Shown here piece after piece: positions 708 through 60,922 of a stretch of 64,000 nt of DNA (position 1 is the first letter of the stretch; each line of letters starts with the position of its first letter). The stretch comes from a virus. Lineage: Duplodnaviria > Heunggongvirae > Uroviricota > Caudoviricetes. A program made the position numbers and the translations under genes. The stretch covers positions 131,486 through 195,485 of IMG/VR virus record IMGVR_UViG_3300030332_001481. One strand, given 5' to 3'. The notes beneath the pieces were generated by a model. The model saw only the letters and a program-made list of their open reading frames with translations. It ran no database searches and was not told the DNA's origin.

Positions 708-725
708 CCAACCCTGGCCATACTA
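708..725 (+). promoter_or_regulatory. repeat motif copy 1 (putative phage promoter)
   Basis: CCAACCCTGGCCATACTA, intergenic, 36 nt before ATG 762. Confidence 0.8.
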
Positions 726-761
726 AGTAGGAAGCCGGGGGACAAACGAGTAAAGTAGACT

Positions 762-968
762 ATGAGTAACGATACCAAGTACAACATGTCCGATTACGAC
801 AAGGCTTTTGGTACCATCAACGAGCTGATGGACAAGTTCGAGACCGACATGGAGAACTCAGACTCTCCTCCCACGAAGGACTACGCGCTCTTCGTGGCGC
901 AGTGCCTGCGCATCGTTGAAGAGAAGGCGCGCAGGATCAAGGAGCTTGAGAAGGCGAGGATCAAGTGA
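762..968 (+). CDS. hypothetical protein
   Basis: 68-aa ORF directly after motif; GTGA overlap with next gene. Confidence 0.75.
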   Translation: MSNDTKYNMSDYDKAFGTINELMDKFETDMENSDSPPTKDYALFVAQCLRIVEEKARRIKELEKARIK

Positions 969-1228
969 CCACTCACAAGATCAAGACCCTCTGGTCGAAC
1001 ATCTCCAACTGGATGCGAAGCGAGGCTTTCGGCTTCGTCTGGGAGAGTGACTTCGACCACGACGAAGACATCGAACTCAGCGTCAGCAACGGCCAGCTGG
1101 TCGTGGCGCTGCTATTCACCTCTCCGATCCTCATCATTGTCCTGTGGGGACTGGCCAAGTACCTGCTCCTGGGCCTGCTCACCATCATAGCAGCGTACCA
1201 GATCGTGAAGTACCTCCCGCACGACTAG
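965..1228 (+). CDS. small membrane protein
   Basis: long hydrophobic stretch VVALLFTSPILIIVLWGLAKYLLLGLLTIIAAY. Confidence 0.7.
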   Translation: MTTHKIKTLWSNISNWMRSEAFGFVWESDFDHDEDIELSVSNGQLVVALLFTSPILIIVLWGLAKYLLLGLLTIIAAYQIVKYLPHD

Positions 1229-1280
1229 CTGAACCTACACAGTCTTATAGACCCACAGTCTCACAGAAAGGGGCAAACGT

Positions 1281-1703
1281 ATGCCCAGGAAGAAAATGCC
1301 CGCTCCCATGAGGACGGTCAAGAAGATCGACCGGCTACTTGAAACGATGGTGGAGGAGTACGACATGGATACGGACGTTCGTGATGACGTTGTACGAGCG
1401 TACGTAGACCGCGGTTGGATCGCGATCCTATTTGCTGACGGCACATGGACAGTCAGCTATGACCGCCTAGGGGCCCGGCCCTCTTACGATGGATATTTGG
1501 CTGGAAAGTACACTACCTACATCTACGACCTCGTCCGGGCCATGGAAAAGCTGGAACTCATCACAGAGGATGAGTTCACAGTGTTTCATAAGTGGTTTGA
1601 CCGGGCAAAAGAAAAATACAGCAGGAAGACTGAGTTGCGTCGGCTAGAGCAGACTGCCCACGATCTGGGGTATAAGCTGGTCAAACGGGAGAAGGTGCAG
1701 TGA
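1281..1703 (+). CDS. hypothetical protein
   Basis: 140-aa ORF, AGAAAGGGG upstream, GTGA coupling to next. Confidence 0.7.
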   Translation: MPRKKMPAPMRTVKKIDRLLETMVEEYDMDTDVRDDVVRAYVDRGWIAILFADGTWTVSYDRLGARPSYDGYLAGKYTTYIYDLVRAMEKLELITEDEFTVFHKWFDRAKEKYSRKTELRRLEQTAHDLGYKLVKREKVQ

Positions 1704-2074
1704 CTGACGTCTACGAAGAGATCAGGACGGTGCAGGCCGACGGGACTGTCACGGTGAAGCGCAAGCTCAAGACCGCGGTGGTTCACCGTTTCATGCTCGC
1801 GCTGCGAACCGTTCCAGCCACAAAGCTTCAGGAGCTGCTGCTCAAGATTGTAAAGATGAATACGACGTACTGGGTGGACCGGGCCAATCGGCTGCTGGAG
1901 GAGTCGCAAGACAACTCCCGTACGAAAGAGGAACGTCGTGCTTCCCGCAAGTCTTACGTTCATGCCTTTCAGCAGTCTTGCCAGTCGTTCCGCATGCAGG
2001 AGGGCCTGACTCGGGTGCGAACGGAGTACCTCAGTGAGGTTGACTTGAACCTCCCCTACAAGAAGATGGGCTGA
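1700..2074 (+). CDS. hypothetical protein
   Basis: 124-aa ORF in operon packing. Confidence 0.7.
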   Translation: MTDVYEEIRTVQADGTVTVKRKLKTAVVHRFMLALRTVPATKLQELLLKIVKMNTTYWVDRANRLLEESQDNSRTKEERRASRKSYVHAFQQSCQSFRMQEGLTRVRTEYLSEVDLNLPYKKMG

Positions 2075-2083
2075 GACAGGACG

Positions 2084-2335
2084 ATGTACGACATCAACAC
2101 ACGTGCCTACCTGGGAGACCAACTCAATTCTGAGGTGAGCTTGACCCAGCAACGCGGTTTCCACAAACGGAGCAACGGGTACGCTCCCTCGATTGAGCCT
2201 GCCTCCGACTTTCAGTACGACATGACTAGCACTGACGCGTGGGACGTTTTGTGCAACTCGTGTTCGGAGTTGATTCCTCGGCGGCCCAACCGTGCGAACC
2301 GTTCGCGCCGCACTGTAGACTGGGATAGCATCTGA
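2084..2335 (+). CDS. hypothetical protein
   Basis: 83-aa ORF, AGGA SD. Confidence 0.55.
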   Translation: MYDINTRAYLGDQLNSEVSLTQQRGFHKRSNGYAPSIEPASDFQYDMTSTDAWDVLCNSCSELIPRRPNRANRSRRTVDWDSI

Positions 2336-2550
2336 TGTCTGGTAAAATCGAGAAGCAAGACAATCAAAATGACTCGATCAACGTGACTGGCAGCCCGAAG
2401 TACCCCTGTAAGTACATAAGAGTAGTAAGTTCAGTGCCTGCTGTTGAGGTCTTCCTCCACATGCGCGGCAACGATTTAGGCATCAAGTCTCTCGAACTTG
2501 TTCCAACTCGCGTAAGAATTCACTCACCGCAGATTAGAAATCGCTGGTGA
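2335..2550 (+). CDS. hypothetical protein
   Basis: 71-aa ORF, TGATG overlap with previous. Confidence 0.45.
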   Translation: MSGKIEKQDNQNDSINVTGSPKYPCKYIRVVSSVPAVEVFLHMRGNDLGIKSLELVPTRVRIHSPQIRNRW

Positions 2551-2560
2551 GACCCCACTG

Positions 2561-2737
2561 ATGCCTAAGAAATCGAAGCCTCCTGCGGATGAGTATGAGG
2601 TTCAGGCGCTGTCCAACGGTGTGCTACGAACCGAGAAGACTCATATGATCTGCCGTGTCTCCTACGCCGACAAGAAGCTCCTTGAGCACATGCGGAAGAG
2701 CCTTCAGGCTTACGTGGACGAACACATTCGAGAATAG
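2561..2737 (+). CDS. small hypothetical protein (58 aa, not in ORF track)
   Basis: manual translation MPKKSKPPADEYEVQ...YVDEHIRE*; fills the gap. Confidence 0.55.
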   Translation: MPKKSKPPADEYEVQALSNGVLRTEKTHMICRVSYADKKLLEHMRKSLQAYVDEHIRE

Positions 2738-2747
2738 CTGGAAGCAC

Positions 2748-3443
2748 ATGACTAAGCGTTACTCCCAGATGCTCCACGGGCGGGTTGTCAAGCCGCCCGA
2801 CAAGTCGTACATTGCCTACAAGAAGATGGTGAAGCTGTGTCGCCGGTACGGCGTGCATGTAGCCCACGTACAGGATCAGGAGTCAGTGCTTAGGGCTTCC
2901 ATGGGGACGATGCCTTTTTGGAGGCGCAACTCCAGCGCGTCGGGGCACTTTACGATCAAGCGGTCGCTGGGTGAAGCTCCGCTGATCATCGCCTGTAAGT
3001 ACAAGAGGGCGAACAACGATGACAAGGAACTGTACGCGTGTGAGCTGCTGCACGAGCTGTCCCACGCACTACTTCCTGGGCATCCCGGGAGCCATGAAGA
3101 GATCAATAGTGGGAACCTTGGGTTCGAGGGAACCATTGCCAGACGGCTCCGGCTTAGGGGTTGGAGCAAGTGGATGCACCACTACTACACCCATGAGGGT
3201 CTATGGCGCGACCAGTCTGCCGAGGTGCAGGACCAGCTCATCCGAGAGTCCGCTGAGGTTGCCAAGTACTGGGGTCTACTCACTGCCACGGACGAGCCCA
3301 CCCACACTCCGCCGTGGGATAACGAGAACAGACTTGAGGAGTGGCACAAGCTAATGGTGGAGGAGCATCTCAACATGATGATCTCTTCTGGCTACGACGT
3401 CGAGTACAAGGGGCGCGTGCCTGATGACAGCCCTCAGCCCTGA
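2748..3443 (+). CDS. zincin-like metallopeptidase-motif protein
   Basis: LLHELSH (HExxH) motif; ATG 2748 inside ORF 2655..3443. Confidence 0.55.
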   Translation: MTKRYSQMLHGRVVKPPDKSYIAYKKMVKLCRRYGVHVAHVQDQESVLRASMGTMPFWRRNSSASGHFTIKRSLGEAPLIIACKYKRANNDDKELYACELLHELSHALLPGHPGSHEEINSGNLGFEGTIARRLRLRGWSKWMHHYYTHEGLWRDQSAEVQDQLIRESAEVAKYWGLLTATDEPTHTPPWDNENRLEEWHKLMVEEHLNMMISSGYDVEYKGRVPDDSPQP

Positions 3444-3717
3444 CCTGCGATCGCACATCCTGGTTGTGGCTCAGCTACTCGTTCGGCAACCGCAGCGTGG
3501 GATTGAGTATGTAAAGCACCAGTCAGATCTACCCATACGTCTCTGCGTAGCACTGGAGAAAGCGTTCACTGCTGGTGGGGTTACTCACGCTATCGAAAGG
3601 CTTCGATATGATAACTCTGCTGAAGTCCGTGAGGTAGGCGGAATCCTGCGTTGGGTACATGAGGCGAAGTCATCAACCACCCGGAGGACAAATGCTCGAA
3701 CCACCGATTCCGCTTGA
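3424..3717 (+). CDS. hypothetical protein
   Basis: 97-aa ORF between flanking genes. Confidence 0.5.
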   Translation: MTALSPDLRSHILVVAQLLVRQPQRGIEYVKHQSDLPIRLCVALEKAFTAGGVTHAIERLRYDNSAEVREVGGILRWVHEAKSSTTRRTNARTTDSA

Positions 3718-4848: not shown

Positions 4849-4918
4849 GTACCTACGCGTTCTGCTAAGGTCAACAGGGACAATCCGTTCTACTGAGTCG
4901 TTCTAGCATCTACAGTGG

Positions 4919-4936
4919 CCAACCCTGGGGATACTA
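4919..4936 (+). promoter_or_regulatory. repeat motif copy 2 (variant GG)
   Basis: CCAACCCTGGGGATACTA followed by G.U hairpin 4941-4970. Confidence 0.75.
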
Positions 4937-5015
4937 GGTAGGGTCAGCGGGTCGAAGGACTCGTTGGCCCTTCCCAGTTTAACCACCACTAATAATCACC
5001 AGCGGAGTAACCACC

Positions 5016-7230: not shown

Positions 7231-7947
7231 GTGACGTTGAACTGGGAAGAAGAGAAGGCGAAGGCCATCGCGTGGATCATCGAGGGCAGCAAGAAGGCGT
7301 TCGCCGCCAAGGCCATCGATGAGAGGGCTATTCGCAACGTCCTCCATAACAACAACCTGACCGTCAAGTTCTCGGGTCGCATGGTGGACACCGTGGGACT
7401 GGCCTTCAATGGCTACCCCAAGAAGTCTCCCCGCAAACTCGCACGCTGGATCAAGCTCAGTAAGTTTGCGTGGGAGCATTTCTCCGAGAAGGACAAGAAG
7501 GAGACCGTTCTTCACGAGTTGGCCCACATCTTTGTGTCCGAGATGGTGCGTGCGGGAAAGCTGAAGGAAGAAGGCACCAGGCGTCGACGTGTAGTTCACG
7601 GAAAGAACTTCAAGAACATGTGTGCTGCGTTGGGCGACGCCTCCTTCTCATTCGCCAGGCATGACTTTGGCCTGCCCCCACACCCCACGCGGCATAAGAA
7701 CCACAAGCCTTCTTTCTGTGGTTGCCCTGAAAGAATGCAGCCTCGCTTTCACCTCTCCCCGAACCAGCAGAAGAAGCTCAAGAGTGGCAATAAACTCTAC
7801 TGCCGATCTTGCAAACACTACATTGGACTGACGAAGGAAGACGTAGCGCCCATGCCTGTCAGGCGCCGTAAGCGTACCGTCACTGCTCACACCTCCACTA
7901 GGTTTCCTCGTGACGGGGAGCCGCTTATCACTTTCATTGACGTCTAA
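7231..7947 (+). CDS. SprT-like metalloprotease with Zn ribbon
   Basis: VLHELAH, HGKNFKNMC, CGC...CRSC; GGAGGAG before GTG 7231. Confidence 0.75.
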   Translation: MTLNWEEEKAKAIAWIIEGSKKAFAAKAIDERAIRNVLHNNNLTVKFSGRMVDTVGLAFNGYPKKSPRKLARWIKLSKFAWEHFSEKDKKETVLHELAHIFVSEMVRAGKLKEEGTRRRRVVHGKNFKNMCAALGDASFSFARHDFGLPPHPTRHKNHKPSFCGCPERMQPRFHLSPNQQKKLKSGNKLYCRSCKHYIGLTKEDVAPMPVRRRKRTVTAHTSTRFPRDGEPLITFIDV

Positions 7948-9322: not shown

Positions 9323-9340
9323 CCAACCCTGGCCATACTA
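9323..9340 (+). promoter_or_regulatory. repeat motif copy 3
   Basis: exact motif upstream of rIIA. Confidence 0.8.
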
Positions 9341-9415: not shown

Positions 9416-11749
9416 ATGGAACTCCAGACCACCAAGAGCGACGTGATCATCTCCGAAGGCCAGGAGGTGGTGGATTGTTCGATCAAGATCGACGCAGCCA
9501 CCTTCAAGATCTTCAGTGAGACCCTGTACTCTCGTACCTACGACGCCATCGTTCGTGAGCTTGCCTGCAATGCTTACGACAGCCAGACTGTGGCCGGGAC
9601 GCTGGACCGTCCCTTTGAGATCAATCTCCCCACCGCTCTCGCCAGTACCTTCAGCATCCGCGACTTCGGTACCGGGATGAGCAAGGAGACGATGAAGAGG
9701 GTCTTCTCGCAGTGGTTCAACTCCACCAAGCGTGAAGACAACACCCAGACCGGGTGCTTCGGGATCGGCTCCAAGGCGCCTCTCGCCTACGTTCCGAAGT
9801 TCACCGTCGTCAGCTGGCACGGCGGCATCAAGCACATCATGCAGATGGCGCTACAGGACGACGGCGACGGCCGAGGTGGTGTCCCTGCTCAGGTGTTCCT
9901 GTCGGAGACTCCTTCCGACGAGCCCAGCGGTCTGGAGGTTTACTTCCACGTCCAGCCGGAGAACTACTACGACTTTCGTGTGGCCGCCGAGACGGTCCTT
10001 CGTCCTTTCCCTGAGGGGTCGTACAAGGTCGTCCGAGGAGGCAGCCACTTCGATGTAGAGGAGTACCCCGAGCGTGACTTCCTCAGTGGCGAAGTCACCT
10101 CTCCCTCCATGGGTAAGTTCCCCTACAAGGTCTACTACTCGAACTCTGGCTTTCGTTCCACGCTTGTGATGGGGAACGTGGAGTACCCCCTCGTCAACCA
10201 GAACAAGTTCTCCCTCAACGCCAAGCGCGTCGCCAACCTGTCGATCAAGATCGACTGCCCGCTCAACACCTTCTCGATGACTCCGTCCCGGGAGACGGTG
10301 CAGTGGTCGGAGGACTTCTCGATCCCCCGGGTCAACGAAGTCCTGGAGCTGATCTTCGAACAGATCGACGAGCGCCTCGACAACGAGGTTGCCGCGGCCG
10401 ACTCCTACTGGGAGGCTTGCCTTCTGGCAAAGGCGTACTTCCACAAGAGCCCGTTCTCTCAGTGGGGACACAAGCCCCAGTGGAAGGGAAAGAAGATCCA
10501 GTTCAAGATCTCCGTCGAGTCCGATCTGAAGGACGGGGACGTCACCATGACCGGCGTCCAGGCAACGACCAAGAGGGGCGACACGCTGGCGAACAACTCC
10601 GCCAGTGAGTACGGCAAGGTACGTGATGTGGATGTGGTGGGGTCCACCAGGTTCTTCATCAACGATCTTCCGGGCAAGAAGGGGCTCTCCCGGATCAAGA
10701 AGCACATTCGTTACCGGATGGCCATGGACCAGGTCTGCTACCTGATCTCTTCGGAGGACAAGAAGAAGCTCGACGCTCTGACGAAGGAGACGCTGGGTCT
10801 CCACACCACCAAGATCGAGCCCGTGTCGTCCCTGGAAGACTTCACCCCGCCGCGCCGAGCGGGTGGTGGCGGCGGAGGTGGCGGAGGTAGCAGCTCTGCT
10901 GTGTCGGGGACTCGCTGCCTCGCCTACACGCCAATCAACGAAGGCCACTACAGCCGCAGAGCTGCGGACAAATGGGAACCCTCCGATATCGATCTGGAAG
11001 AAGACTCGGGTGTCTTCGTCGAGATCAGTCGGTGGAAGGTCTGCGACAGCATGACTGGCGAGAGCATCTCTGACATCCGAGACATCCTGCGAGATGTTTG
11101 TAAGGTTGCTGGGATCGACGAGCCCATTCTTGTGGGAGTTCGGACTTCGCAGGTACAGAAGTTCCATGACTCTGACAGCTGGCACAGCTTCGACGCTTGG
11201 GCACGTGACATCCTAAAGGATGCGTGGATGAACGACACGCTTCTCCGGTGGAGCGTGGACTTTCACGCGAGAAGTTCTTTCTACCAGACGAGCAGCTGGG
11301 GTGACAGTGTCGTGTCGTCGAGGCACCGGGACGCGGTCAAGACCTTCTGTGCGAGGGTCAACAAGAGCCGCAACCTCTTCTCCGGAACTCCTTGGGTGCT
11401 GCACTACGTCGACAAGATCAATGACATCATCTCAAAGAAGGCAGACGAGCAGGCGACGCGGTTCGTGACCTCCTACCTCAACTTGAAGCTCCACGAAGAG
11501 TTTGGGCTCGTGAGTCCGAACTACGGAGGCAAGATCCAGTACTACGGGGTCCTCGCTGATCGTATCCCGCTGCTTCAGGAGTTCTGTACCTACAGTGGCT
11601 TGAGCCTCAGTGGTCAGGACCTGGCCACGCTCGTGGAGATGAGCAGCCTTTACCTGGCCAAGAAGGAAGCCGAGAAGCAGGCGCGAGACGCGGCAGCGCA
11701 GGCAGCTGATGGGGACGACGATCCCAACACCTTGAGGGCCGTGGGGTGA
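9416..11749 (+). CDS. rIIA: RIIA-like protein (N-terminal GHKL ATPase fold)
   Basis: LYSRTYDAIVRELACNAYDS, IRDFGTGMS, STKREDNTQTGCFGIGSKAPLAY; paired with downstream rIIB. Confidence 0.85.
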   Translation: MELQTTKSDVIISEGQEVVDCSIKIDAATFKIFSETLYSRTYDAIVRELACNAYDSQTVAGTLDRPFEINLPTALASTFSIRDFGTGMSKETMKRVFSQWFNSTKREDNTQTGCFGIGSKAPLAYVPKFTVVSWHGGIKHIMQMALQDDGDGRGGVPAQVFLSETPSDEPSGLEVYFHVQPENYYDFRVAAETVLRPFPEGSYKVVRGGSHFDVEEYPERDFLSGEVTSPSMGKFPYKVYYSNSGFRSTLVMGNVEYPLVNQNKFSLNAKRVANLSIKIDCPLNTFSMTPSRETVQWSEDFSIPRVNEVLELIFEQIDERLDNEVAAADSYWEACLLAKAYFHKSPFSQWGHKPQWKGKKIQFKISVESDLKDGDVTMTGVQATTKRGDTLANNSASEYGKVRDVDVVGSTRFFINDLPGKKGLSRIKKHIRYRMAMDQVCYLISSEDKKKLDALTKETLGLHTTKIEPVSSLEDFTPPRRAGGGGGGGGGSSSAVSGTRCLAYTPINEGHYSRRAADKWEPSDIDLEEDSGVFVEISRWKVCDSMTGESISDIRDILRDVCKVAGIDEPILVGVRTSQVQKFHDSDSWHSFDAWARDILKDAWMNDTLLRWSVDFHARSSFYQTSSWGDSVVSSRHRDAVKTFCARVNKSRNLFSGTPWVLHYVDKINDIISKKADEQATRFVTSYLNLKLHEEFGLVSPNYGGKIQYYGVLADRIPLLQEFCTYSGLSLSGQDLATLVEMSSLYLAKKEAEKQARDAAAQAADGDDDPNTLRAVG

Positions 11750-11753: not shown

Positions 11754-12074
11754 ATGAGTGTGGATGTCAAACAAAGACTCGAACACATCAAGAGCATCAT
11801 CAAGCAGGCTCCGGTAGAGAGCCGTAAAGTGGCTCATGGCCCTGCACCTGAGTGTACCGGTGGGTCTAAGGCTTGGCTCTCTTACTCCCCCGGAGGGCCC
11901 TCTTGCTACTGCGGAGGGCGCCGGTACACCTGCCCTGGGTGTCTCCGGTTCATTCCAGAGTGCCTGGGAGCTGACGATGTTCTGGCCGAGTACTGCGACG
12001 ATTGTGCAAACGCGATCGTAAAGTACGCCTCGCCCGATGGCGGGTGGCCAACCCTGGACACACTAGACGATTGA
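11754..12074 (+). CDS. Cys-rich putative Zn-finger protein
   Basis: CYC..CPGC..CDDC; 3' end contains a degenerate motif copy. Confidence 0.6.
   Translation: MSVDVKQRLEHIKSIIKQAPVESRKVAHGPAPECTGGSKAWLSYSPGGPSCYCGGRRYTCPGCLRFIPECLGADDVLAEYCDDCANAIVKYASPDGGWPTLDTLDD
12048..12065 (+). promoter_or_regulatory. repeat motif copy 4 (degenerate, intragenic)
   Basis: CCAACCCTGGACACACTA, 2 mismatches, 56 nt before rIIB ATG. Confidence 0.6.
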
Positions 12075-12121: not shown

Positions 12122-13309
12122 ATGACTGACATCGCATACATTCTCGGGCCGACCGCGTTCACGGTTGTGATCCGGGGCGAGGTTTTCGAGATCGGGAACG
12201 ACCACCCCAAGTTCAACGACATCCTGGACGTCATTCGCAACGCTCCGGAGAACGAGACGGCCGAGCAGAACTTCGACCGCGCAGAGTTGCTCCTGAGCCT
12301 CGTCAAGCAGGACAGCGCGAACGCCTTCACCAATCAGCTCGAAGAGCTGGGCATCGAAGACATCACCGTCGAGAACGGGCAGGTGCTCGTTCGCGGTGAG
12401 CCCATGCACACTCACCTGACCGACCGCATCTTGGAGCTACAGAAGGCGCGGCTTCCCTTCGAGTTCCTCCTCAAGTTCTGGGTCAACCTCAGCGCCAACC
12501 CGGACGAGCACCCGCGGCAGAACCTCTTCAAGTTCCTGGATTCGTGCCGGTTCCCGCTCACCGACGATGGGTGCTTCCTGGGGTACAAGTTCGGCAAGTA
12601 CAACGACGAGGGTCAGATCGTCGACTGGTACTCCGGAACGACGGTCCTTGAGCCGGGTGCCAAGGTTCCCATGAAGCGTGAGGACGTGGTCGCTGACCCG
12701 AAGGAACCGTGCGCCCCGGGTCTCCACATCGGAACTCTCAACTACGCGAAGGGAATAGGGGCCAACAACCCCATGGTGGTGGTCAAGGTGAACCCCAAGG
12801 ACGTTGTTTCCATCCCCAACGAGTACAGGTTCCAGAAGCTCAGGAGCTGCTACTACGAGGTGGTCAACGTCTTCCGCGGCACCGTAAAGACGAGCAAGCA
12901 GTTCGTCCGTCCTGCCTACAAGGAGGAAGAGTACTCCTCCGAGACGTGGGAGGATGAGGAAGACGTCTACGAGGTCACGATGGGTGAGCCCGAAGACGCC
13001 CGCCGCGAGCGCTACAGCGCGATGAGCCGGGATGAGGTCTGTCGCATCGCTGCCTCAGAGGGGGTCTTCTTGTCCACCAACGAGGCGCGGGACCTGGGCA
13101 AGGACGTCGTGGTCGAGAGCATGGTGGCGGGAATCTTCCCCTACCAGAACTGCCCGAAGTCTGCCATGGTCAAGCTGGCGCTTCGCCGCAAGATGTTCAC
13201 CTCGCCGCGCAAGGCTCAGCGCACGCCGGCCGAGACTCTGTCTCAGCTCATCAAGGACTCCACTCGGGAGGTGCGAAACCAGACCCTCGAATCGGAAAGT
13301 GAGGGTTGA
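12122..13309 (+). CDS. rIIB: RIIB-like protein
   Basis: FLLKFWVNLSANP, LTDDGCFLGYK, CAPGLH, VKVNPKDVVSIP, KLRSCYYEV. Confidence 0.85.
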   Translation: MTDIAYILGPTAFTVVIRGEVFEIGNDHPKFNDILDVIRNAPENETAEQNFDRAELLLSLVKQDSANAFTNQLEELGIEDITVENGQVLVRGEPMHTHLTDRILELQKARLPFEFLLKFWVNLSANPDEHPRQNLFKFLDSCRFPLTDDGCFLGYKFGKYNDEGQIVDWYSGTTVLEPGAKVPMKREDVVADPKEPCAPGLHIGTLNYAKGIGANNPMVVVKVNPKDVVSIPNEYRFQKLRSCYYEVVNVFRGTVKTSKQFVRPAYKEEEYSSETWEDEEDVYEVTMGEPEDARRERYSAMSRDEVCRIAASEGVFLSTNEARDLGKDVVVESMVAGIFPYQNCPKSAMVKLALRRKMFTSPRKAQRTPAETLSQLIKDSTREVRNQTLESESEG

Positions 13310-13333
13310 CACCGAGCCGGCCCCTGCTAGTAT
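13306..13333 (+). promoter_or_regulatory. sigma70-type promoter
   Basis: TTGACA (13306-11), 16-nt spacer with extended TG, TAGTAT (13328-33). Confidence 0.65.
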
Positions 13334-13339
13334 AAGCGT

Positions 13340-13515: not shown

Positions 13516-13563
13516 TTTAACCACGAAACCACAATGACCTGTAAACGACCTGGGGGGTAACCA

Positions 13564-15668: not shown

Positions 15669-15686
15669 CCAACCCTGGCCATACTA
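15669..15686 (+). promoter_or_regulatory. repeat motif copy 5
   Basis: exact motif; hairpin gagcagc/gctgctt follows. Confidence 0.8.
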
Positions 15687-19383: not shown

Positions 19384-19401
19384 CCAACCCTGGCCATACT
19401 A
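19384..19401 (+). promoter_or_regulatory. repeat motif copy 6
   Basis: exact motif, AACCACC-rich leader follows. Confidence 0.8.
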
Positions 19402-23552: not shown

Positions 23553-23987
23553 ATGACTATGCAGTACCCTCCTTTTCAGGACATGCCGTGGGCCCTGTGG
23601 CTCGACGACATTCGCAACCCAAGCGTTTACTTCGACGCTCTAGGGTACACGATGATCGAGGAGGTCAAGGACCTCCCGGTTCTGTGGGCCCGCGACGTGG
23701 AGCAGGCGGTTTACTTCGTCAAGTCTTTCGGGACTCCACAGTTCATGTGCCTCGACCATGACCTGGGTGTGCCTGCGTACTCCAACACCCCGGAGAAGAG
23801 TACCAAGTTCCTTGGTTGGCTCGCGAACTACGTCAACCTTGTAAAGCCCATTCCGTACCGCACACACTCGGACAACCCCGAAGGGTGTAAGAGCGTGGTG
23901 GCGTTTCTGGAGTCCTGGTACAAGTCTTCCCTGCTTCCAGGGAACGAGCACGCCTACCAGGCCCTAAAGAACGAGGAAGAAGAATGA
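23553..23987 (+). CDS. cyclic-phosphate-processing receiver-domain protein
   Basis: LWLDDIRNP, CLDHDLG, HSDNPEG motifs. Confidence 0.75.
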   Translation: MTMQYPPFQDMPWALWLDDIRNPSVYFDALGYTMIEEVKDLPVLWARDVEQAVYFVKSFGTPQFMCLDHDLGVPAYSNTPEKSTKFLGWLANYVNLVKPIPYRTHSDNPEGCKSVVAFLESWYKSSLLPGNEHAYQALKNEEEE

Positions 23988-25222: not shown

Positions 25223-25240
25223 TCAACCCTGGCCATACTA
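25223..25240 (+). promoter_or_regulatory. repeat motif copy 7
   Basis: TCAACCCTGGCCATACTA; G.U hairpin 25245-25274. Confidence 0.8.
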
Positions 25241-25310
25241 GATAGGGTCGGTGGGCTGCAAAGCTTGCCGGCCCTTTCTGCAATTCATCATTCAACTCAG
25301 GAGAACCACC

Positions 25311-27617: not shown

Positions 27618-27635
27618 CCAACCCTGGCCATACTA
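27618..27635 (+). promoter_or_regulatory. repeat motif copy 8 (no convincing ORF before next copy)
   Basis: exact motif followed by hairpin and T-rich tract. Confidence 0.8.
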
Positions 27636-27647
27636 GGTAGGGAGCCG

Positions 27648-27690
27648 AGGGGCTGAGGCGACGTTGGTTGTCTCAGCCCCTGCTTATTTT
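27648..27690 (+). terminator. hairpin with T-rich tail (candidate short RNA)
   Basis: aggggctgag/ctcagcccct stem, GTTGGTTG apex, gcttatttt tail. Confidence 0.55.
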
Positions 27691-27785: not shown

Positions 27786-27803
27786 CCAACCCTGGCCATA
27801 CTA
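27786..27803 (+). promoter_or_regulatory. repeat motif copy 9
   Basis: exact motif. Confidence 0.8.
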
Positions 27804-29935: not shown

Positions 29936-29953
29936 GCAACCCTGGCCATACTA
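29936..29953 (+). promoter_or_regulatory. repeat motif copy 10
   Basis: GCAACCCTGGCCATACTA. Confidence 0.8.
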
Positions 29954-31080: not shown

Positions 31081-31266
31081 ATGACAAAGACTAACACCAA
31101 CACGCTCGACCGCCTCCGCAACACCGACGACGTTGAGCTGTACGAGACCGACAGTCGAGGCTGCAACCTCACGGAGGCCGGCGCGCAGTTGGCCGAGGCT
31201 GCCGGCCTGACCGTCGACGTTGATGCCTACGGCAACGCGTATGTGGTGGAGACGACTGGTGAGTGA
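31081..31266 (+). CDS. small acidic protein
   Basis: AAGGAG SD. Confidence 0.6.
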   Translation: MTKTNTNTLDRLRNTDDVELYETDSRGCNLTEAGAQLAEAAGLTVDVDAYGNAYVVETTGE

Positions 31267-31357: not shown

Positions 31358-31431
<74 letters not shown>

Positions 31432-34943: not shown

Positions 34944-35142
34944 CGACGAGATAGATGACGAGATACACCCCGATGAGCTGAGGAGGATCTGGGCGAATAG
35001 GGAGCTACGACGAAAGGTACGGGCGCAGCGTGGTGGCCCGTACACCGGTCGCTGTGCTCGGTGCGGAAGCTCCGACCTGTGGGACGACAACCTGTCCTAT
35101 GGGTGCCGCAAGTGCGGACTAGTACACGTAGGCAACATGTAG
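34933..35142 (+). CDS. small Zn-ribbon protein
   Basis: CARCGS...CRKCG. Confidence 0.65.
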   Translation: MHFDDEIDDEIHPDELRRIWANRELRRKVRAQRGGPYTGRCARCGSSDLWDDNLSYGCRKCGLVHVGNM

Positions 35143-35147: not shown

Positions 35148-35165
35148 CCAACCCTGGCCATACTA
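35148..35165 (+). promoter_or_regulatory. repeat motif copy 11
   Basis: exact motif 5 nt after upstream TAG; hairpin 35170-35198. Confidence 0.8.
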
Positions 35166-39471: not shown

Positions 39472-39489
39472 CCAACCCTGGCCACACTA
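39472..39489 (+). promoter_or_regulatory. repeat motif copy 12 (variant CACACT)
   Basis: CCAACCCTGGCCACACTA, 1 nt after upstream TAA. Confidence 0.75.
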
Positions 39490-40564: not shown

Positions 40565-40582
40565 CCAACCCTGGCCATACTA
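40565..40582 (+). promoter_or_regulatory. repeat motif copy 13
   Basis: exact motif; GAAA-tetraloop hairpin 40586-40611. Confidence 0.8.
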
Positions 40583-45746: not shown

Positions 45747-45764
45747 CCAACCCTGGCCATACTA
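45747..45764 (+). promoter_or_regulatory. repeat motif copy 14
   Basis: exact motif immediately followed by a perfect palindrome. Confidence 0.8.
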
Positions 45765-45794
45765 GGCTAGGTGGGACGTCCCACCTAGCCTTTT
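45765..45794 (+). terminator. palindrome/hairpin with TTTT
   Basis: ggctaggtgggacgtcccacctagcc + tttt. Confidence 0.5.
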
Positions 45795-45838
45795 CACGTT
45801 CTGCCCCGAAACAATCACCAAGGAACAATGGAACAATC

Positions 45839-46310: not shown

Positions 46311-46802
46311 ATGCAATACATCATCAAGTTCTACGAAGACCACTTCCAGCGAAACCTGAGCTGGCTGCTCGATGCCGGGGGCCTGGAGGACGTCGGCATC
46401 GAGCAGTGGCGTATGGTATCGACTTCCTTCCGCGAAACGGACGTGGTAGAGACCAACTACCACCCCACAGCGAGAGCGCGAAAGGAAGCTCCCGCACCCC
46501 TGAGGCACTACATCAAGGCGACCCAGGAAGTTCCGAGCCGCTCCTTGTACTATGGATGCGGACGTGACCTTCCAGGGCTCGAAGCTTTGAGCCGAGGAGG
46601 ACAGACCGAGGTGGTGGGGTACGATCCCTACCACCCGGACGAGAAGTTCCGCAGCGAACCACAGGGCGCATTCGACGAGATCGTTTGCGTCTACACCCTG
46701 AACGTAGTCCCCCAGGACGTGGGGGAAGAAATCCTAGACCACATGGCATCGATGCTCAAGCCAGGAGGAAAGGCTTTGGTTTCGGTGCGAAGGAGAATAT
46801 AA
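46311..46802 (+). CDS. class I SAM-dependent methyltransferase-like protein
   Basis: YYGCGRD, GYDPY, FDEIVCVYTLNVV, LKPGGKALVSVR. Confidence 0.7.
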   Translation: MQYIIKFYEDHFQRNLSWLLDAGGLEDVGIEQWRMVSTSFRETDVVETNYHPTARARKEAPAPLRHYIKATQEVPSRSLYYGCGRDLPGLEALSRGGQTEVVGYDPYHPDEKFRSEPQGAFDEIVCVYTLNVVPQDVGEEILDHMASMLKPGGKALVSVRRRI

Positions 46803-48204: not shown

Positions 48205-48222
48205 CCAACCCTGGCCATACTA
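48205..48222 (+). promoter_or_regulatory. repeat motif copy 15
   Basis: exact motif. Confidence 0.8.
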
Positions 48223-50301: not shown

Positions 50302-50703
50302 ATGCCGAAGATCAAAGACGCCAAGGGCGCAGAGATGAAGCACACCCAGCTCCTAGTGGACTCCGAGAATGGGGGCATTCACCTGGTCTACCACGAGACC
50401 GCGGTCATGAGCCTGCTCCCCACGGGGGTAACTCTCCGAGACGGAGGGTGGCAAACTACGACCACGCTGCGGCGAATCAACCAGGGAGCTGAGATCTTCA
50501 GGATTCCACTGAGTGTCTACCTGAAGGATGGCAAGTGGATCATCCGATTCGGTCGCACCGGGATGGAGTGTGCCTTCGAAGACGGGATGGAGTTCCCGCC
50601 TGGCGCCCTGGGCATGAGTGTCGCCGAGATGGAAGACGCGTCACTGCACGTGAACAAGACGCGCCGCCCCAAGGATGCAGCCACCAGCTCCGTGGAGCTG
50701 TAA
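50302..50703 (+). CDS. phage protein (GGWQTTTT..RIN motif)
   Basis: A-rich leader; motif seen in phage early proteins. Confidence 0.7.
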   Translation: MPKIKDAKGAEMKHTQLLVDSENGGIHLVYHETAVMSLLPTGVTLRDGGWQTTTTLRRINQGAEIFRIPLSVYLKDGKWIIRFGRTGMECAFEDGMEFPPGALGMSVAEMEDASLHVNKTRRPKDAATSSVEL

Positions 50704-52583: not shown

Positions 52584-52601
52584 CCAACCCTGGCCATACT
52601 A
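52584..52601 (+). promoter_or_regulatory. repeat motif copy 16 (with upstream inverted half-copy)
   Basis: exact motif; agggttggccc 52557-67 pairs with gggccaaccct 52581-91. Confidence 0.8.
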
Positions 52602-52999: not shown

Positions 53000-53521
53000 A
53001 TGAGCGAAACTCTGCGAATCTACGTGGCCTGCCTGGCTTCGTACAACCACGGTGACCTGCACGGGGAGTGGATCGAGGTCGACCCGGATTGGGACATCTC
53101 CGATCTGGCCGAGGCCATCAGCGAGCGGGTCCTCAAGACCAGCAAGCACAACGGGGAGGAGTGGGCCATCCACGACGTCGACAGTTTCTGTGACTTCGGG
53201 ATCAAGGAGCACACGAGCCTGGAAGAAGTGATTCGCTTCGCCCAGCTCGTCGAGCGTCACGAGGAGGATGTTCTCTGTGCGGCGACCCGGGTCTGGTCGT
53301 GCAGCGAGGGGCCCGACGAACTGGAGTCGATGATCGAAGAGCGGTTCCACGGAGCGTACGACAACAAGGGCGAATATGCCGCGGAGATCAACGAAGGCGT
53401 CGAACTGCCCGCGCACCTGGCCCAGTACATGAACTGGGAAGCGTACGAGCGAGACCTGGAGCTAGGAGGAGACATCACCGTCTCCTTCTACGACGGCAGC
53501 TACTACATCTTCTCCAACTGA
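53000..53521 (+). CDS. ardA: ArdA antirestriction protein (DNA mimic)
   Basis: RIYVACLASYNHGDLHGEW, EEWAIHD, YMNWEAYERDL. Confidence 0.9.
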   Translation: MSETLRIYVACLASYNHGDLHGEWIEVDPDWDISDLAEAISERVLKTSKHNGEEWAIHDVDSFCDFGIKEHTSLEEVIRFAQLVERHEEDVLCAATRVWSCSEGPDELESMIEERFHGAYDNKGEYAAEINEGVELPAHLAQYMNWEAYERDLELGGDITVSFYDGSYYIFSN

Positions 53522-55072: not shown

Positions 55073-55079
55073 GGTCCCG

Positions 55080-55560: not shown

Positions 55561-56280
55561 ATGAGCTATCGAGACCTCCCGGAAGGGAGAGACCTGACCG
55601 AGAAGCTTGAGGACCAGGAACCTCTGGGCGTCCCTCCCATTCAGCACACGCCTTCCCCCAAGAAGCAGCCCAAGTTCGATCCCTTCGAGGATGACCTCGG
55701 GTCCAAAAAGGCAGCTACAGACATCCCCAGCAAGAAAGACAAGAAGCCAATCATGAGCAAGAAAGTAGCGAACCCACAGCCCGACAGGATGCCTCCCCAA
55801 GAGGGCGAAGACGTGCGTATCTGGCGGCACAACACATTCGAAGACCCTCATCCCGAAAGATACCCGGAGAAGTACGCCAAGGCTCTAGAGATTGCCAAGC
55901 GCTTGGCATACGTGAAAGCAGGGATCTACTTCGAGTGTGGTGAGTACCTGCACCTAATCCGGCCGACGGATAGGGAGCGCGTCAGTTCCAAGTGGGGAGC
56001 TATCCGGTATGATCGGATCATATGTTTCGAGTACAACCTTCGACATGGTTTGCCCTCCAGGGATTATGTCATTATTCACCTCAGCCCCAAGGATAAGGTA
56101 AATACTGATGTGCCCGTTGATGTCATTGGGGCCGCTCTCAAGGCGATGAGTGAAATCAGGCGTGGCTCTGATGATGTGGAGTATGGAGTTGACTTTCCCT
56201 ACGTGGCTCAGTTCTTCCGCCTGCCCACGTTGAACTGGGATGGTTGCTACTACGTAGAAGACAAGAGGTTGGACGTATGA
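55561..56280 (+). CDS. hypothetical protein
   Basis: AGGAACACCACC-ATG; divergent from wHTH gene. Confidence 0.7.
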   Translation: MSYRDLPEGRDLTEKLEDQEPLGVPPIQHTPSPKKQPKFDPFEDDLGSKKAATDIPSKKDKKPIMSKKVANPQPDRMPPQEGEDVRIWRHNTFEDPHPERYPEKYAKALEIAKRLAYVKAGIYFECGEYLHLIRPTDRERVSSKWGAIRYDRIICFEYNLRHGLPSRDYVIIHLSPKDKVNTDVPVDVIGAALKAMSEIRRGSDDVEYGVDFPYVAQFFRLPTLNWDGCYYVEDKRLDV

Positions 56281-56477: not shown

Positions 56478-56487
56478 ACACGAAAGG

Positions 56488-56505
56488 CCAACCCTGGCCA
56501 TACTA
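56488..56505 (+). promoter_or_regulatory. repeat motif copy 17
   Basis: exact motif; hairpin gccggca/tgtcggc follows. Confidence 0.8.
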
Positions 56506-56545
56506 GATAGTGAAGCCGGCAAGGTGTCGGCAGAAAGGAATAATC

Positions 56546-56974: not shown

Positions 56975-56982
56975 GGCAACAG

Positions 56983-57715: not shown

Positions 57716-57716
57716 A

Positions 57717-58004
57717 ATGCTGAACGACACCGACCGGGCGAACATTCGCCAGCTCGAAAACAAGATGGAAGAGTTGCGGGAGGTTCGCAACCACATCAGT
57801 GACGCGAAGGCCCTGCTCCGATCATCGGGCATCACGGAGAGCACCGACCCCGATGCGTGGGGTTCCATGGGTGCCTTCGATGCGGCGGAGGGAGCGCTGG
57901 ATGCCTTGAAGGCGGCGAGCCGTCTCAACAACATCGCGTACCGTCGTCTGGAAGAGCGGGTCCAGGAGATCCGTCGACAGGCGATGGAAGACACGAACCG
58001 CTAA
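57717..58004 (+). CDS. coiled-coil hypothetical protein
   Basis: AAGGAG SD before ATG 57717. Confidence 0.7.
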   Translation: MLNDTDRANIRQLENKMEELREVRNHISDAKALLRSSGITESTDPDAWGSMGAFDAAEGALDALKAASRLNNIAYRRLEERVQEIRRQAMEDTNR

Positions 58005-58007
58005 CAC

Positions 58008-58044
58008 AGGAAACGGGGAGGCCACATGGCCTCCCCGTTTCCTT
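58008..58044 (+). terminator. intrinsic terminator-like hairpin
   Basis: aggaaacggggaggcca/tggcctccccgtttcct 17-bp perfect stem. Confidence 0.75.
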
Positions 58045-58102
58045 GCTTAACGTGACATCTACACGAAGTTACCCAAAGTTCCTGAAAGAAAGGCAACCAA
58101 TC

Positions 58103-58825
58103 ATGGATTTTCGACGTAAGTACGAGCGCACCGAAGACGGCAACAATGGGTTCGAGGAGAACCACGAGGCTTTCGGTATGGTACAGTTCTCTCGCTGCTC
58201 TGGCAGTACCAAGCTGTTCGGATCACACCTGAGCAGCCACCCCGGCTACATCTCGCTGCGCATCTATCCCGGAGTTAGGCGTCATTCTCACAGCCGGGAC
58301 TGGTACGCTGCCAAGAGCCTGAAGCCCTACATCGAGGTGATGCTCTCGGCTGCACAGTTTGCCGAGCTGGTCACTTCCATGAACGTGGGGAGCGGTGTTC
58401 CTTGCACGATCAACTCGATCCTGGGTGAGCGGCTGGACGCAGTGCCCGACCATATCAAGGCCGAGAACGCCGAGATCCTCGCGGGCTTCAAGGACAAGCT
58501 TCAGGACCTGGCCAGTGTGGTGACGCGCAGCGCTCTGGAGATGGAAAAGATCGTCAACGACAAGGGAAACATCACCAAGAGCAAAGCCCGTGGTATGCTG
58601 GGGATCATGCGGGGGGTTGCGATGGAAGTTTCTTCCAACATCCCGTACGTTCTCACTGCGTTCCAGGAGGCAGCAGGGGAGGTGGTTACTCACTCCAAGG
58701 CGGAGGTCGAGTCTTTCACCAACATGATTCTGACCCGTGCAGGAATGGAGCACATGCGACTCCAGAAGAACGGCATGCTGGAGCTGGCCGGGGACTTCGA
58801 CGGCGACAACGAGGGAGAGCAGTGA
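58103..58825 (+). CDS. conserved-type phage protein
   Basis: AAGAAAGG..ACCAATC-ATG; HEAFG..FSR..G, LSAAQFAELVTSMNVGSGVPCTI. Confidence 0.75.
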   Translation: MDFRRKYERTEDGNNGFEENHEAFGMVQFSRCSGSTKLFGSHLSSHPGYISLRIYPGVRRHSHSRDWYAAKSLKPYIEVMLSAAQFAELVTSMNVGSGVPCTINSILGERLDAVPDHIKAENAEILAGFKDKLQDLASVVTRSALEMEKIVNDKGNITKSKARGMLGIMRGVAMEVSSNIPYVLTAFQEAAGEVVTHSKAEVESFTNMILTRAGMEHMRLQKNGMLELAGDFDGDNEGEQ

Positions 58826-59331
58826 TGGAAAAGAACGAGAGCGAGAGCGAACAGAGCGAACAGAGCGAGCACGAGGGAAGGCCCGTCGTGAACGGGCACG
58901 AATGGAAGCCTGCTCTCGAAGGCGGAGGAATCTACTTCATGAGCCAGATGCCCATGGAAGATGGGAGAACTCTCCGCGAACACAACATGGAGAAAGAGCA
59001 CAAGTTCCCGCTTGGGTCTTTGGTGGAGGTGGAAGTCCACCACCTCGGCGGAGGCTACGGCGAAGGCCCGATAAAGTCCGACGTGGACATGAAGGGAACG
59101 TGCCGACTGTTCGTCGTGGACCAGTTTCGCGACTGTGACGGCACCCCCCTGTACACGCTAAGTGACATCCCGGTGCTCCACGCAGAGTATGCCTCCCAGG
59201 AGAGCTTTCGGGAGAAGTATTTCACCACATACTGTGGTGGGGGATACTCTGAAGATTCCATGAAGGACCTTGGTGTTCGCCAGGAACTCTTCCCCACTGT
59301 GGCCGCCTGGATGGATTGGTCCAGTAGATAG
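58825..59331 (+). CDS. hypothetical protein, N-terminal SEQ repeats
   Basis: HKFPLGSLVEV...DCDGTPLY. Confidence 0.7.
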   Translation: MEKNESESEQSEQSEHEGRPVVNGHEWKPALEGGGIYFMSQMPMEDGRTLREHNMEKEHKFPLGSLVEVEVHHLGGGYGEGPIKSDVDMKGTCRLFVVDQFRDCDGTPLYTLSDIPVLHAEYASQESFREKYFTTYCGGGYSEDSMKDLGVRQELFPTVAAWMDWSSR

Positions 59332-59340
59332 GAGAAACCA

Positions 59341-59766
59341 ATGGGATTCAATAGCGTAGTTCTGATCAACAACGACTGTATCTCGGACGTCGAGCGGGAC
59401 CCCAAGAGCTGGTGGTCGAGAGCGTGGGGTGCTCTCTCCAACCTTCAAGGGCCAGCCATGACCTACGAGGAAGCCAAGAAGGCCATCGCAGAGATGGGAG
59501 AGAAGCCCTGGGCTTCGGTCAACGATCTCACGGGAAGATTCGGTAACTTCCAGGCTGTGTGGAATCGACACGCGGATGAAGTGGGGCTGATTCTAGTAGG
59601 GTGGAACCGGGCCCAAGTTGTGCTACACAGCTTTCATGCACCTGTACGTGGACAGTCGGGGCCCCATTCCGAAGAGGCACAGGTGAAGTTCCTGAAACAG
59701 TGGGCGGATAAGTTGGGGTACAGGGTCTCGAAGAAGCCAAAGCCCAGGAATTCCAAGGCCGAGTAA
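59341..59766 (+). CDS. hypothetical protein
   Basis: AGGAG SD. Confidence 0.75.
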   Translation: MGFNSVVLINNDCISDVERDPKSWWSRAWGALSNLQGPAMTYEEAKKAIAEMGEKPWASVNDLTGRFGNFQAVWNRHADEVGLILVGWNRAQVVLHSFHAPVRGQSGPHSEEAQVKFLKQWADKLGYRVSKKPKPRNSKAE

Positions 59767-59774
59767 GGCTCAGA

Positions 59775-59792
59775 GGCCAAGGTCTTTTAACA
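59775..59792 (+). repeat. second motif GGCCAAGGTCTTTTAACA, copy b
   Basis: matches 24662-24676 (+) and 47243-47259 (-). Confidence 0.75.
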
Positions 59793-59806
59793 CGACAGGG
59801 GAAACA

Positions 59807-60100
59807 ATGACCACAAAGTACAAGATGACGCTGATCTTCGGGATGCGTAAGATGAACTACGAAGGCGAGTATGCCCCGGAGCTACTCGACGCGTGGGACG
59901 AATACACCATGACCGAGAACTACGAGGGCTTCAACGAGAAGTTCAACAAGTTCAAGCGGGACCCCGAGTTTTCGGAGGTTCGACTCATGGAGATCGCAAT
60001 CCCCGAGGCAGCTGTGTATGGGCTTTTCGAGGTTCCCACGCTGGAAGCAAGCGTAAAGCCCGTGAAAGACCCGGCCACCAGCGAAAAGGTATCGGGCTGA
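59807..60100 (+). CDS. hypothetical protein
   Basis: AGGGGA SD. Confidence 0.7.
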   Translation: MTTKYKMTLIFGMRKMNYEGEYAPELLDAWDEYTMTENYEGFNEKFNKFKRDPEFSEVRLMEIAIPEAAVYGLFEVPTLEASVKPVKDPATSEKVSG

Positions 60101-60117
60101 ATTCCTTGGAGGACTAG

Positions 60118-60495
60118 ATGACACTAGAAGCTGACGTGAGCGAGCAGAGATTGCGAACCACACTCGAATCGGTTCTATCGAAGATCGAAACCAAGTTCCA
60201 GGGGGAGACACACCTACAGGCGGCGGCCCATATACAGGATGGTAGATATGGGGACATGGCGCTACGCCTAACTGTCAACCCGGGGCTAAAGTTGTCCCTG
60301 GCCAAATGGAATGGCCATGAGTTCGACCGAGAGATCGTGTGGGGAGAGTTCTCGCATGACCAACTACTGCTGGTGAGTGAGTACCTGCAACCTTTGGTGG
60401 AGAAACTCTCCCACCAGCAGAAGGAAAAGAAGGACAAGAGTCAATCCGCCATCGATGAGCTGAAGAAGGTCTCGTCATGGTTGGACGAGCTATAG
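60118..60495 (+). CDS. hypothetical protein
   Basis: GGAGGA SD. Confidence 0.7.
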   Translation: MTLEADVSEQRLRTTLESVLSKIETKFQGETHLQAAAHIQDGRYGDMALRLTVNPGLKLSLAKWNGHEFDREIVWGEFSHDQLLLVSEYLQPLVEKLSHQQKEKKDKSQSAIDELKKVSSWLDEL

Positions 60496-60507
60496 GAGCA
60501 AAGAACA

Positions 60508-60894
60508 GTGGAAGACATCAGCATCAGTAAGATCCGCGCAGAGGCCAAGAAGGAGCGCGCCAATCAGGAGCGTGCGAAGAAAGCGGCTGCGGAGGAGAAG
60601 GCGAAGTATGTTCGGGAGCAGGAGGAAATCCAGAAAGCTGACGCTGAGCTGTGGGTTCGCGAGGATTTCCCCGCTATCCTCAAAAAGCATCTGACCCGTG
60701 ATCCCGACGCCACAATGATCACCTTTGTGCGTGACCGGATCTCCCCCGGCAGCCTCCCCGTTCGCGCTGTCCGCTTTGTCGTGGAGGCCCTCAAGCAGGT
60801 GAAGGGTGTGCGGAAGGTAGAGTATGAATGTTCCACTAGTATCGATCCGGACTACGGGGAGATCGATTCCCATCTGGTCAGGGTCCACATCTGA
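60508..60894 (+). CDS. hypothetical protein, coiled-coil N-half
   Basis: AGGAG before GTG. Confidence 0.7.
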   Translation: MEDISISKIRAEAKKERANQERAKKAAAEEKAKYVREQEEIQKADAELWVREDFPAILKKHLTRDPDATMITFVRDRISPGSLPVRAVRFVVEALKQVKGVRKVEYECSTSIDPDYGEIDSHLVRVHI

Positions 60895-60904
60895 GCTGTT
60901 AAGC

Positions 60905-60922
60905 CCAACCCTGGCCACACTA
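60905..60922 (+). promoter_or_regulatory. repeat motif copy 18 (variant CACACT), upstream of tRNA
   Basis: CCAACCCTGGCCACACTA. Confidence 0.75.

Follow-up and report, generated by a model that had tools for sequence, protein, structure and literature searches.

A repeated two-block motif without a -35 element is very probably a phage-specific promoter in an uncultured marine jumbo phage

The repeated motif and its placement

An uncultured marine jumbo phage carries many near-identical copies of an 18-bp motif that is very probably a promoter. Eighteen of these copies lie in the 64,000-nt stretch of DNA analyzed here (the window), which comprises bases 131,486-195,485 of the IMG/VR record IMGVR_UViG_3300030332_001481 (388,485 bp, 56.6% GC; the phage is referred to as G000). 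We propose that it forms the core of a phage-specific promoter class, named class A, which would drive the operons of a hypervariable early/accessory arm of the genome. The promoter reading is well supported by the position and orientation of the copies, their tRNA targets, a -10-like core and the conservation of the element at orthologous genes.

An initial annotation of the window had listed 18 co-oriented copies, and an 18-mer search at up to three mismatches returned exactly those positions, all on the plus strand (Table 1). Only 0.02 copies are expected from dinucleotide-preserving shuffles, and none of 100 shuffles attained 18. Twelve copies are exact 18-mers and two further ones deviate solely at base 1, which gives the fourteen exact 17-mer cores counted earlier. 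By gene calls, 17 of the 18 copies are intergenic as described, the exception being the copy at 12048, which overlaps the 3' end of a doubtful 106-aa open reading frame (ORF). The reported closeness to upstream stop codons was also borne out, with gaps of 5, 1 and 3 nt after the stops at 35142, 39470 and 40561, respectively. The word said to follow the motif often, R-TAGGGAGCCG, was recovered in part: TAGGGAGCCG is exact in 4 of the 18 copies and present with one mismatch in one more, preceded by two purines rather than one, and a variant longer by one base occurs in three or four other copies.

Genome-wide, the 17-mer core at up to three mismatches is present in 59 copies, 49 on the plus strand and 10 on the minus strand; the latter face minus-strand genes, as had been predicted for the leftward arm. 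Genes were called with a crude codon-usage caller built for G000 (564 genes, 89% coding), according to which 58 of the 59 copies are co-oriented with the next gene and about 50 lie between genes. The distance from the motif end to the start codon has a median of 58 nt and an interquartile range of 42-79 nt, with a full spread from 1 to approximately 350 nt. A variant copy at genome position 96,698 lies 17 nt before the first gene of an eight-tRNA array, and copies in two of the related jumbo phages introduced below (G001 and G002) also lead directly into tRNA genes, which speaks for a role in transcription rather than translation. The copies at genome positions 147155 and 308369 precede the first genes of blocks that come after oppositely oriented genes. 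The exact motif was found in no IMG/VR contig other than that of this phage.

The G000 motif is bipartite and consists of the hexamer CAACCC, a 4-nt GC-rich spacer (TGGC) and the -10-like heptamer CAYACTA. In a logo of the 59 copies it forms one contiguous block of about 20 positions (0-19) with about 31 bits, a value that is inflated because the sites were picked by their similarity to the consensus; 13.7 bits suffice to specify 59 sites in G000. Of the 59 copies, 55 have a purine (G or A) at position 18, and a weaker purine-rich stretch follows the block. We expect transcription to start about 6 nt past the final A of the heptamer, in this purine-rich run. Counted from the motif, the logo is uninformative upstream of position -3 and shows nothing conserved at the location of a -35 block, in agreement with the earlier remark that a TTGACA-like -35 is absent. 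The resemblance of CATACT to a -10 box was likewise upheld, since the first A and the T of the heptamer (S-A-T/Y-A/R-n-T-A) are invariant in the 59, 69, 68 and 18 sites of four phages, and we take them to be equivalent to -11A and -7T of sigma-70-family -10 elements.

Other features around the heptamer were considered. The sequence TTAAGGG(G)C, found directly upstream of about 15 copies at 179-219 kb, marks a subfamily, and its spacing is wrong for a -35 element. Read directly from the logo, the GG-N10-GC of sigma-54 (-24/-12) promoters is absent, though the two-block geometry is similar. The heptamer was also tried as a stand-alone promoter and rejected, because without the hexamer it shows no enrichment upstream of genes. 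The -10 elements of Bacillus sporulation sigmas resemble CATACTA and sigma-28 boxes resemble GCCGATA; the literature was of no help on these likenesses, and we did not use them as evidence.

Versions of the motif in related phages

No close DNA relatives of G000 were found among cultured phages. Its DNA polymerase is at most 30% identical to the versions of PaBG-like, Lauda-like and Erwinia jumbo phages, and its terminase is about 28-30% identical. The sigma factor of G000 (described in the next section) has about 38 homologues, 34-50% identical to it, and the contigs that carry them reach 424 kb. A single-protein search for its relatives returned none, and an alignment was needed; eight of the homologues are in IMG/VR records, six of which were retrieved for comparison. 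G001, G002 and G003 are three related jumbo phages with sigma factors 46-49% identical to that of G000 and a GC span of 46-57% among the related phages; G004-G006 are more distant and fragmentary. The clade is uncultured and lives in the ocean, with sequences from Tara Oceans and other marine metagenomes. Apart from a single base, the two ends of the G000 record (1-100 and 388,386-388,485) are identical, which makes it probable that this 'linear' record is a complete genome with circular permutation or terminal redundancy.

Searches of the relatives, both de novo and anchored, yielded versions of the same element. The motif CAACCC-TGGC-CAYACTA of G000 (388 kb, 57% GC; 59 sites) corresponds to GAACCC-N4-GATAnTA in G002 (392 kb, 53% GC; 67-69 sites, 68 on one strand), AAA(G/C)(T/C)C-CGnC-GATRnTA in G001 (424 kb, 57% GC; 45-68 sites, all on one strand) and tAACCC-TTCT-SATAGTA in G003 (a 240-kb fragment, 46% GC; 18 sites). 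The heptamer is thus retained across the four phages, and the hexamer and spacer are phage-specific. Importantly, orthologues with 25-57% protein identity have their own phage's version of the motif upstream. The local version precedes rIIA in all four phages, and other orthologues of this kind are rIIB and the genes at 66,052, 114,353, 136,501 and 159,372. On this sequence comparison, the element is functionally conserved at orthologous sites, whereas the copies within any one genome have changed their sequence together, which is how a promoter with a co-evolving reader would behave. The motif was not found in the fragmentary G004-G006, whose fragments possibly lack the variable arm. A 93%-identical small protein common to G000 and G002 was considered as a sign of recent cassette exchange and dropped for want of a matching DNA segment.

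Many asymmetric, co-oriented, intergenic copies, several of them 1-5 nt past a stop codon, could also be the binding sites of a phage regulator that stops or modulates elongation without any initiation. Stoperators of mycobacteriophage L5-type phages, which are repressor sites of temperate phages and have no -10-like core, are similar in their number, their asymmetry, their single orientation relative to transcription and their location in short intergenic gaps. Unlike stoperators, however, class A sites head operons and tRNA arrays, including the first genes of the blocks at 147155 and 308369, and they keep a -10-like A/T pattern and a promoter-like spacing to start codons in four phages. No other abundant promoter motif was found for the variable arm, and neither a repressor nor an integrase was noticed in the scanned ORFs, although no systematic search for them was made. 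An operator or roadblock of this kind is therefore highly improbable.

The sequence behind the motif tends to fold. The 45 nt 3' of the motif have a mean minimum free energy of -12.1 kcal/mol, compared with -8.8 kcal/mol for shuffles, and about 12 of the 18 window copies are followed by a clear hairpin that starts 3-14 nt (usually 3-5 nt) past the motif and in some cases leads into a T-run. Under the promoter reading, this hairpin would form the 5' end of the new transcript, and a hairpin with a T-run could halt read-through from upstream. The hairpin, together with the strict sense-strand placement of the motif and the ability of its CCCT to pair with AGGG after it in many copies, would also fit a signal for processing, stability or translation in polycistronic RNA. 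Such an RNA-level role is hardly probable given the wide range of start-codon distances, the copies before tRNA genes, the loss of the motif-internal pairing in G001 and the lack of any Rfam family matching the motif; no reader of a 17-nt single-stranded RNA site is known.

Candidate readers of the motif

T7-group promoters are contiguous, polymerase-specific elements of 17-23 bp, and in one alternative reading class A is read by an unrecognized phage-encoded RNA polymerase, single-subunit or other. Class A resembles these promoters in its length and contiguity, its near-identical copies, its phage-by-phage specificity (as in the T7/T3/SP6 pairs) and the purine-rich start region with a purine directly after the block. 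Its 17-20 conserved bases and about 31 bits are far above those of usual sigma-type promoters, and several large ORFs have no family assignment. However, a six-frame profile search with the T7-type polymerase family PF00940 gave no match in G000, G001 or G002, while the T7 control scored 1e-109 in the same search. The beta and beta' domains (PF00562 and PF00623) were absent from the phage and matched in all 14 control genomes, and a regular expression for polymerase catalytic motifs yielded no candidates. Nearly all ORFs of at least 450 aa were scanned against PHROGs and/or Pfam without a polymerase match; they were assigned to helicases, PolA, topoisomerase II, an SbcC-like protein, DnaB, ribonucleotide reductase, portal, terminase, baseplate and tail proteins, or to no family. 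The best-conserved unassigned protein (1,158 aa) was rejected as a hidden polymerase because it groups with tail sheaths in an Atlas look-up. In addition, the middle 4 nt of the motif are degenerate in G002, unlike the specificity region of T7-type promoters. Class A is not a T7-type promoter, and recognition by any phage-encoded polymerase is very unlikely.

With no recognizable RNA polymerase of its own, the phage must use the host core polymerase. The initial annotation had left the choice between a phage sigma factor, a phage RNA polymerase and activator-dependent host polymerase; the second option finds no support, as no such polymerase is detectable, and the first and third remain, since G000 does encode a sigma-70-family protein (PF04542). 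This single gene (426 aa, genome 359,921-361,201, outside the window) is conserved in all the relatives, on jumbo contigs. A profile of the family aligns to primary sigmas (SigA/RpoD) whose holoenzyme structures are solved; the aligned part starts at region 2, or at region 1.2 in RpoD, and extends through the region 4.2 recognition helix, with a best E value of 7e-20. The Trp-Trp dyad, which we take to be the DNA-melting element, is retained together with its neighboring residues. In the alignment, family-invariant L, F/Y, N and Q replace T, R, H and E of the primary sigmas, residues that presumably correspond to T440/R441 (reading -12) and H455/E458 (reading the extended -10) of E. coli sigma70. 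Class A departs from the host consensus at the corresponding points, with a -12 that is C or G and an extension rich in GC. As the only such factor and one conserved across the clade, the RpoD-like sigma is the prime candidate for the reader of the motif; the link is circumstantial, and we judge it at least an even bet. The explanation that we favor overall, with somewhat more confidence than doubt, is that class A is a promoter without a -35 element at which the host core polymerase would be recruited by a specificity factor of the phage, for which the RpoD-like sigma, alone or with a helper, is the best candidate.

Phage sigma-70-family factors that work with the host RNA polymerase include gp28 and gp33/34 of SPO1, gp36 of phiEco32 and gp55 of T4. 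The present phage shares with those systems the lack of its own polymerase, an encoded sigma factor and a repeated, non-host motif with a -10-like element before operons. It differs in the missing -35, in a hexamer located 4 nt upstream of the heptamer (approximately -22 to -17), in the T7-like length of the block and in a putative reader that is RpoD-like with regions 2-4, not minimal or like the extracytoplasmic function (ECF) sigmas. A recent review notes that jumbo phages for the most part have no RNA polymerase of their own and encode sigma homologues with unknown promoters, and that RNA polymerase-less jumbo phages often encode sigma homologues likely to read phage-specific promoters (2026 review, PMC13282480).

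Several observations weigh against assigning the motif to this sigma factor, in addition to the inflated information content. The sigma gene lies in the motif-free conserved core and has no obvious host-type promoter upstream, which makes its production before its supposed targets problematic. The recognition of a specific element at about -22 to -17 by a sigma-70-family protein is not known to have a precedent. Furthermore, all four phages show an 8-15-fold enrichment of a second motif, CTGTAAA, in the 150 nt before genes of the same orientation (observed versus expected: 19 vs 1.7 in G000, p = 2e-15; 23 vs 1.5 in G001; 14 vs 1.4 in G002; 7 vs 0.9 in G003). Its reverse complement shows no enrichment, and apart from a C at -1, present in 63 of 98 sites, no other feature is conserved. 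The motif is similar to T4 late promoters, and no gp55-type late sigma was matched among 20 small conserved ORFs or by two PHROG profiles, so the single sigma might serve the CTGTAAA class instead of class A. Examples of this second motif are at window positions 13540, 28700 and 51367 and at genome position 361,223, before a gp32-like single-stranded DNA-binding protein gene.

These points bear on another explanation, in which the host sigma holoenzyme acts with a phage activator bound at the upstream hexamer and the phage sigma is left for the CTGTAAA class. The arrangement would recall the MotA-type middle promoters of T4, but with the activator box adjoining the -10. It would fit the heptamer, which holds a fair -10 (xATAxT), the phage-specific upstream half expected of an activator site, the location of the sigma gene in the motif-free core and the CTGTAAA found upstream of that gene in several relatives. 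On the other hand, -12 is C or G and not the T preferred by primary sigmas, the TG of an extended -10 and a -35 are both missing, and by itself the heptamer is not enriched before genes. No candidate for the activator emerged, a site centered near -20 would overlap the polymerase footprint, and the first transcription of the early arm is explained only on condition that the activator is injected or is produced at a very early stage. We therefore consider an activator unlikely.

Canonical TTGACA-N16-18-TATAAT promoters are not enriched in G000 (12 found vs 23 in a shuffle), and a specific avoidance of TATAAT was rejected because all A/T-only hexamers are equally rare. There are four intergenic near-consensus sigma70-type promoters, one of which, TTGACA-N16-TAGTAT, is directly after rIIB (window 13306-13335, genome 144,791-144,818); the others are at 85,635(-), 98,465(-) and 213,473(+).

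A 152-aa ORF (G000 359,466-359,924; L001:437-895) overlaps the start of the sigma gene by 4 nt. It has a weak match to the SWIM zinc finger (Pfam E = 0.009, below the cut-off). All relatives, even the distant G005, retain this ORF, and it appears to be translationally coupled to the sigma gene; its product could be a partner of the sigma factor. It is conceivable, though doubtful, that the RpoD-like sigma, possibly with this SWIM-like protein, directs the host core polymerase to a -35-less promoter in which the hexamer at approximately -22 to -17 substitutes for the missing element. If true, this would be a new mode of promoter recognition for a sigma-70-family protein, with a two-block geometry like the -24/-12 of sigma-54, and the hexamer specificity would drift from one phage to the next, much like that of the T7/T3/SP6 polymerase-promoter pairs.

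Operons of the hypervariable arm

The G000 genome consists of a conserved core (0-80 and 260-388 kb) and a hypervariable arm of small genes (80-260 kb). Genes with homologues in the relatives make up less than 25% in the arm, compared with about 40-100%, mostly above 60%, per 20-kb bin in the core. Class A copies are concentrated at about 113-260 kb. Neighboring copies in the window are separated by 0.2-5.8 kb, with 0-13 genes (mean 7.5) between them, and at 204-219 kb nearly each small gene has its own copy. These genes are non-paralogous, and an origin of the copies by tandem gene duplication was rejected since there are almost no paralogues. The cargo of rIIA/rIIB, ArdA, an SprT-like protein and a methyltransferase represents typical early/accessory functions. 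A Kyano_Gp96 protein, of a family named after T4-like cyanophages, gives a faint hint to the host. Elsewhere, the structural-gene region holds three paralogous HNH homing-endonuclease genes of 520-660 aa (G000 313,639-317,572 and 325,772-327,340).

Table 1. Motif copies and selected genes in the window
Feature	Position	Strand	Remarks
Motif copy 1	708..725	+	exact 18-mer; heads 11-gene block
Motif copy 2	4919..4936	+	2 mismatches, GGGGAT variant; predicted 14-bp hairpin next, ~4940-4971
Motif copy 3	9323..9340	+	76 nt 5' of rIIA (9416-11749)
Motif copy 4	12048..12065	+	2 mismatches; 57 nt 5' of rIIB (12122-13309)
Motif copy 5	15669..15686	+	
Motif copy 6	19384..19401	+	
Motif copy 7	25223..25240	+	base 1 is T; predicted hairpin at 25239-25280
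Motif copy 8	27618..27635	+	orphan, no ORF before copy 9, 168 nt on; followed only by 15-bp hairpin and T-run (27643-27684 and after)
Motif copy 9	27786..27803	+	84 nt 5' of 266-aa gene; gene and motif conserved in G001 and G002
Motif copy 10	29936..29953	+	base 1 is G; tRNA gene 31358-31431 within operon
Motif copy 11	35148..35165	+	5 nt past upstream stop codon
Motif copy 12	39472..39489	+	CACACTA variant; 1 nt past upstream stop, 4 nt before next called start
Motif copy 13	40565..40582	+	3 nt past upstream stop codon
Motif copy 14	45747..45764	+	12-bp hairpin and TTTT at 45764-45795
Motif copy 15	48205..48222	+	
Motif copy 16	52584..52601	+	operon holds ArdA-type anti-restriction gene
Motif copy 17	56488..56505	+	
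Motif copy 18	60905..60922	+	CACACTA variant; 74 nt 5' of tRNA gene (60996-61069), then conserved 298-aa gene
SprT-like protein	7231-7947		Pfam hit on population contigs
cREC_REC domain protein	23553-23987		Pfam hit on population contigs
Methyltransferase	46311-46802		Pfam hit on population contigs
Kyano_Gp96 protein	50302-50703		Pfam hit on population contigs
ArdA anti-restriction protein	53000-53521		Pfam hit on population contigs

Close inspection of the operons revealed that the gene next to the promoter is conserved far more often than those behind it. In the window, 11 of 17 promoter-adjacent genes are conserved in the relatives, compared with 14 of the 118 genes behind them (Fisher p = 6e-6), and across the whole arm the proportions are 17/46 and 42/251, respectively (p = 0.004). 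Conserved promoter-proximal genes include those at window positions 9416, 19459, 27887, 35242 and 61107. This result suggests that the promoter and first gene are stable anchors and that turnover takes place inside the operons or at their ends.

The initial annotation had further proposed that the near-identical copies provide homology for shuffling whole cassettes. Recombination was examined in 27 contigs that come from other marine samples and belong to the same phage population; they are 98.5-100% identical and cover about 57 kb of the window (5,768-62,951). They differ by small indels, one gene replacement and one 124-bp deletion, none of which is at a motif copy; with neither of the two larger variants at a motif copy, shuffling mediated by the motif finds no support in these two events, which are too few to refute it. 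In the replacement (L111:6431-6860, 99.4% identical before the breakpoint), the 61-aa ORF at 31081 gives way to another, unlike gene, at least 147 aa long. The breakpoint at 31093 is four codons past the shared start codon and ribosome-binding site, so that the swap preserves the translation start. The deletion (55842-55967) lies inside a 239-aa gene (55561-56280) and is found in two independent marine contigs (L125 and L127). In three contigs from other assemblies, the end coincides exactly with a motif copy (window 27619 and 15670); recombination was considered for these ends, and we read them instead as assembly-graph breaks at a repeated word.

The initial annotation had compared the motif with the promoter-early stem-loop (PeSL) cassettes of T4-type phages (Arbiol et al. 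2010, PMC2839356; Comeau et al. 2014, PMC4122927). The layout agrees: in both cases, repeated promoter-plus-stem-loop units occur in hyperplastic regions rich in orphan genes, often one per small gene or operon, and the unit is placed directly between the upstream stop and the downstream start codon. Membership does not hold. PeSL promoters have strong sigma70-type -35/-10 elements and an AT-rich upstream region and are read by the unmodified host enzyme (PMC2839356, PMC4122927), whereas class A has none of these sequence features and, because the sigma70-type -35/-10 is missing, falls outside the PeSL class. PeSL-mediated recombination and mini-circles have been demonstrated in T4-type phages (PMC2839356, PMC4122927); of the two larger population variants seen here, neither is at a motif copy. 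Class A thus resembles a PeSL cassette in function and layout without being a member of that class.

Judged from its sequence and placement, class A is very probably a promoter of two closely spaced blocks that lacks a -35 and occurs in four natural specificity variants. The uncultured ocean clade thereby provides a clean and testable promoter class, with one candidate sigma factor, and the motif permits operon maps of the hypervariable arm. The conservation of promoter-proximal genes is a new pattern that constrains how such phages gain and lose accessory genes. If the link to the sigma factor is true, the clade would offer a set of compact, orthogonal sigma/promoter pairs with an unusual architecture, in which two closely spaced blocks do without a -35 element.

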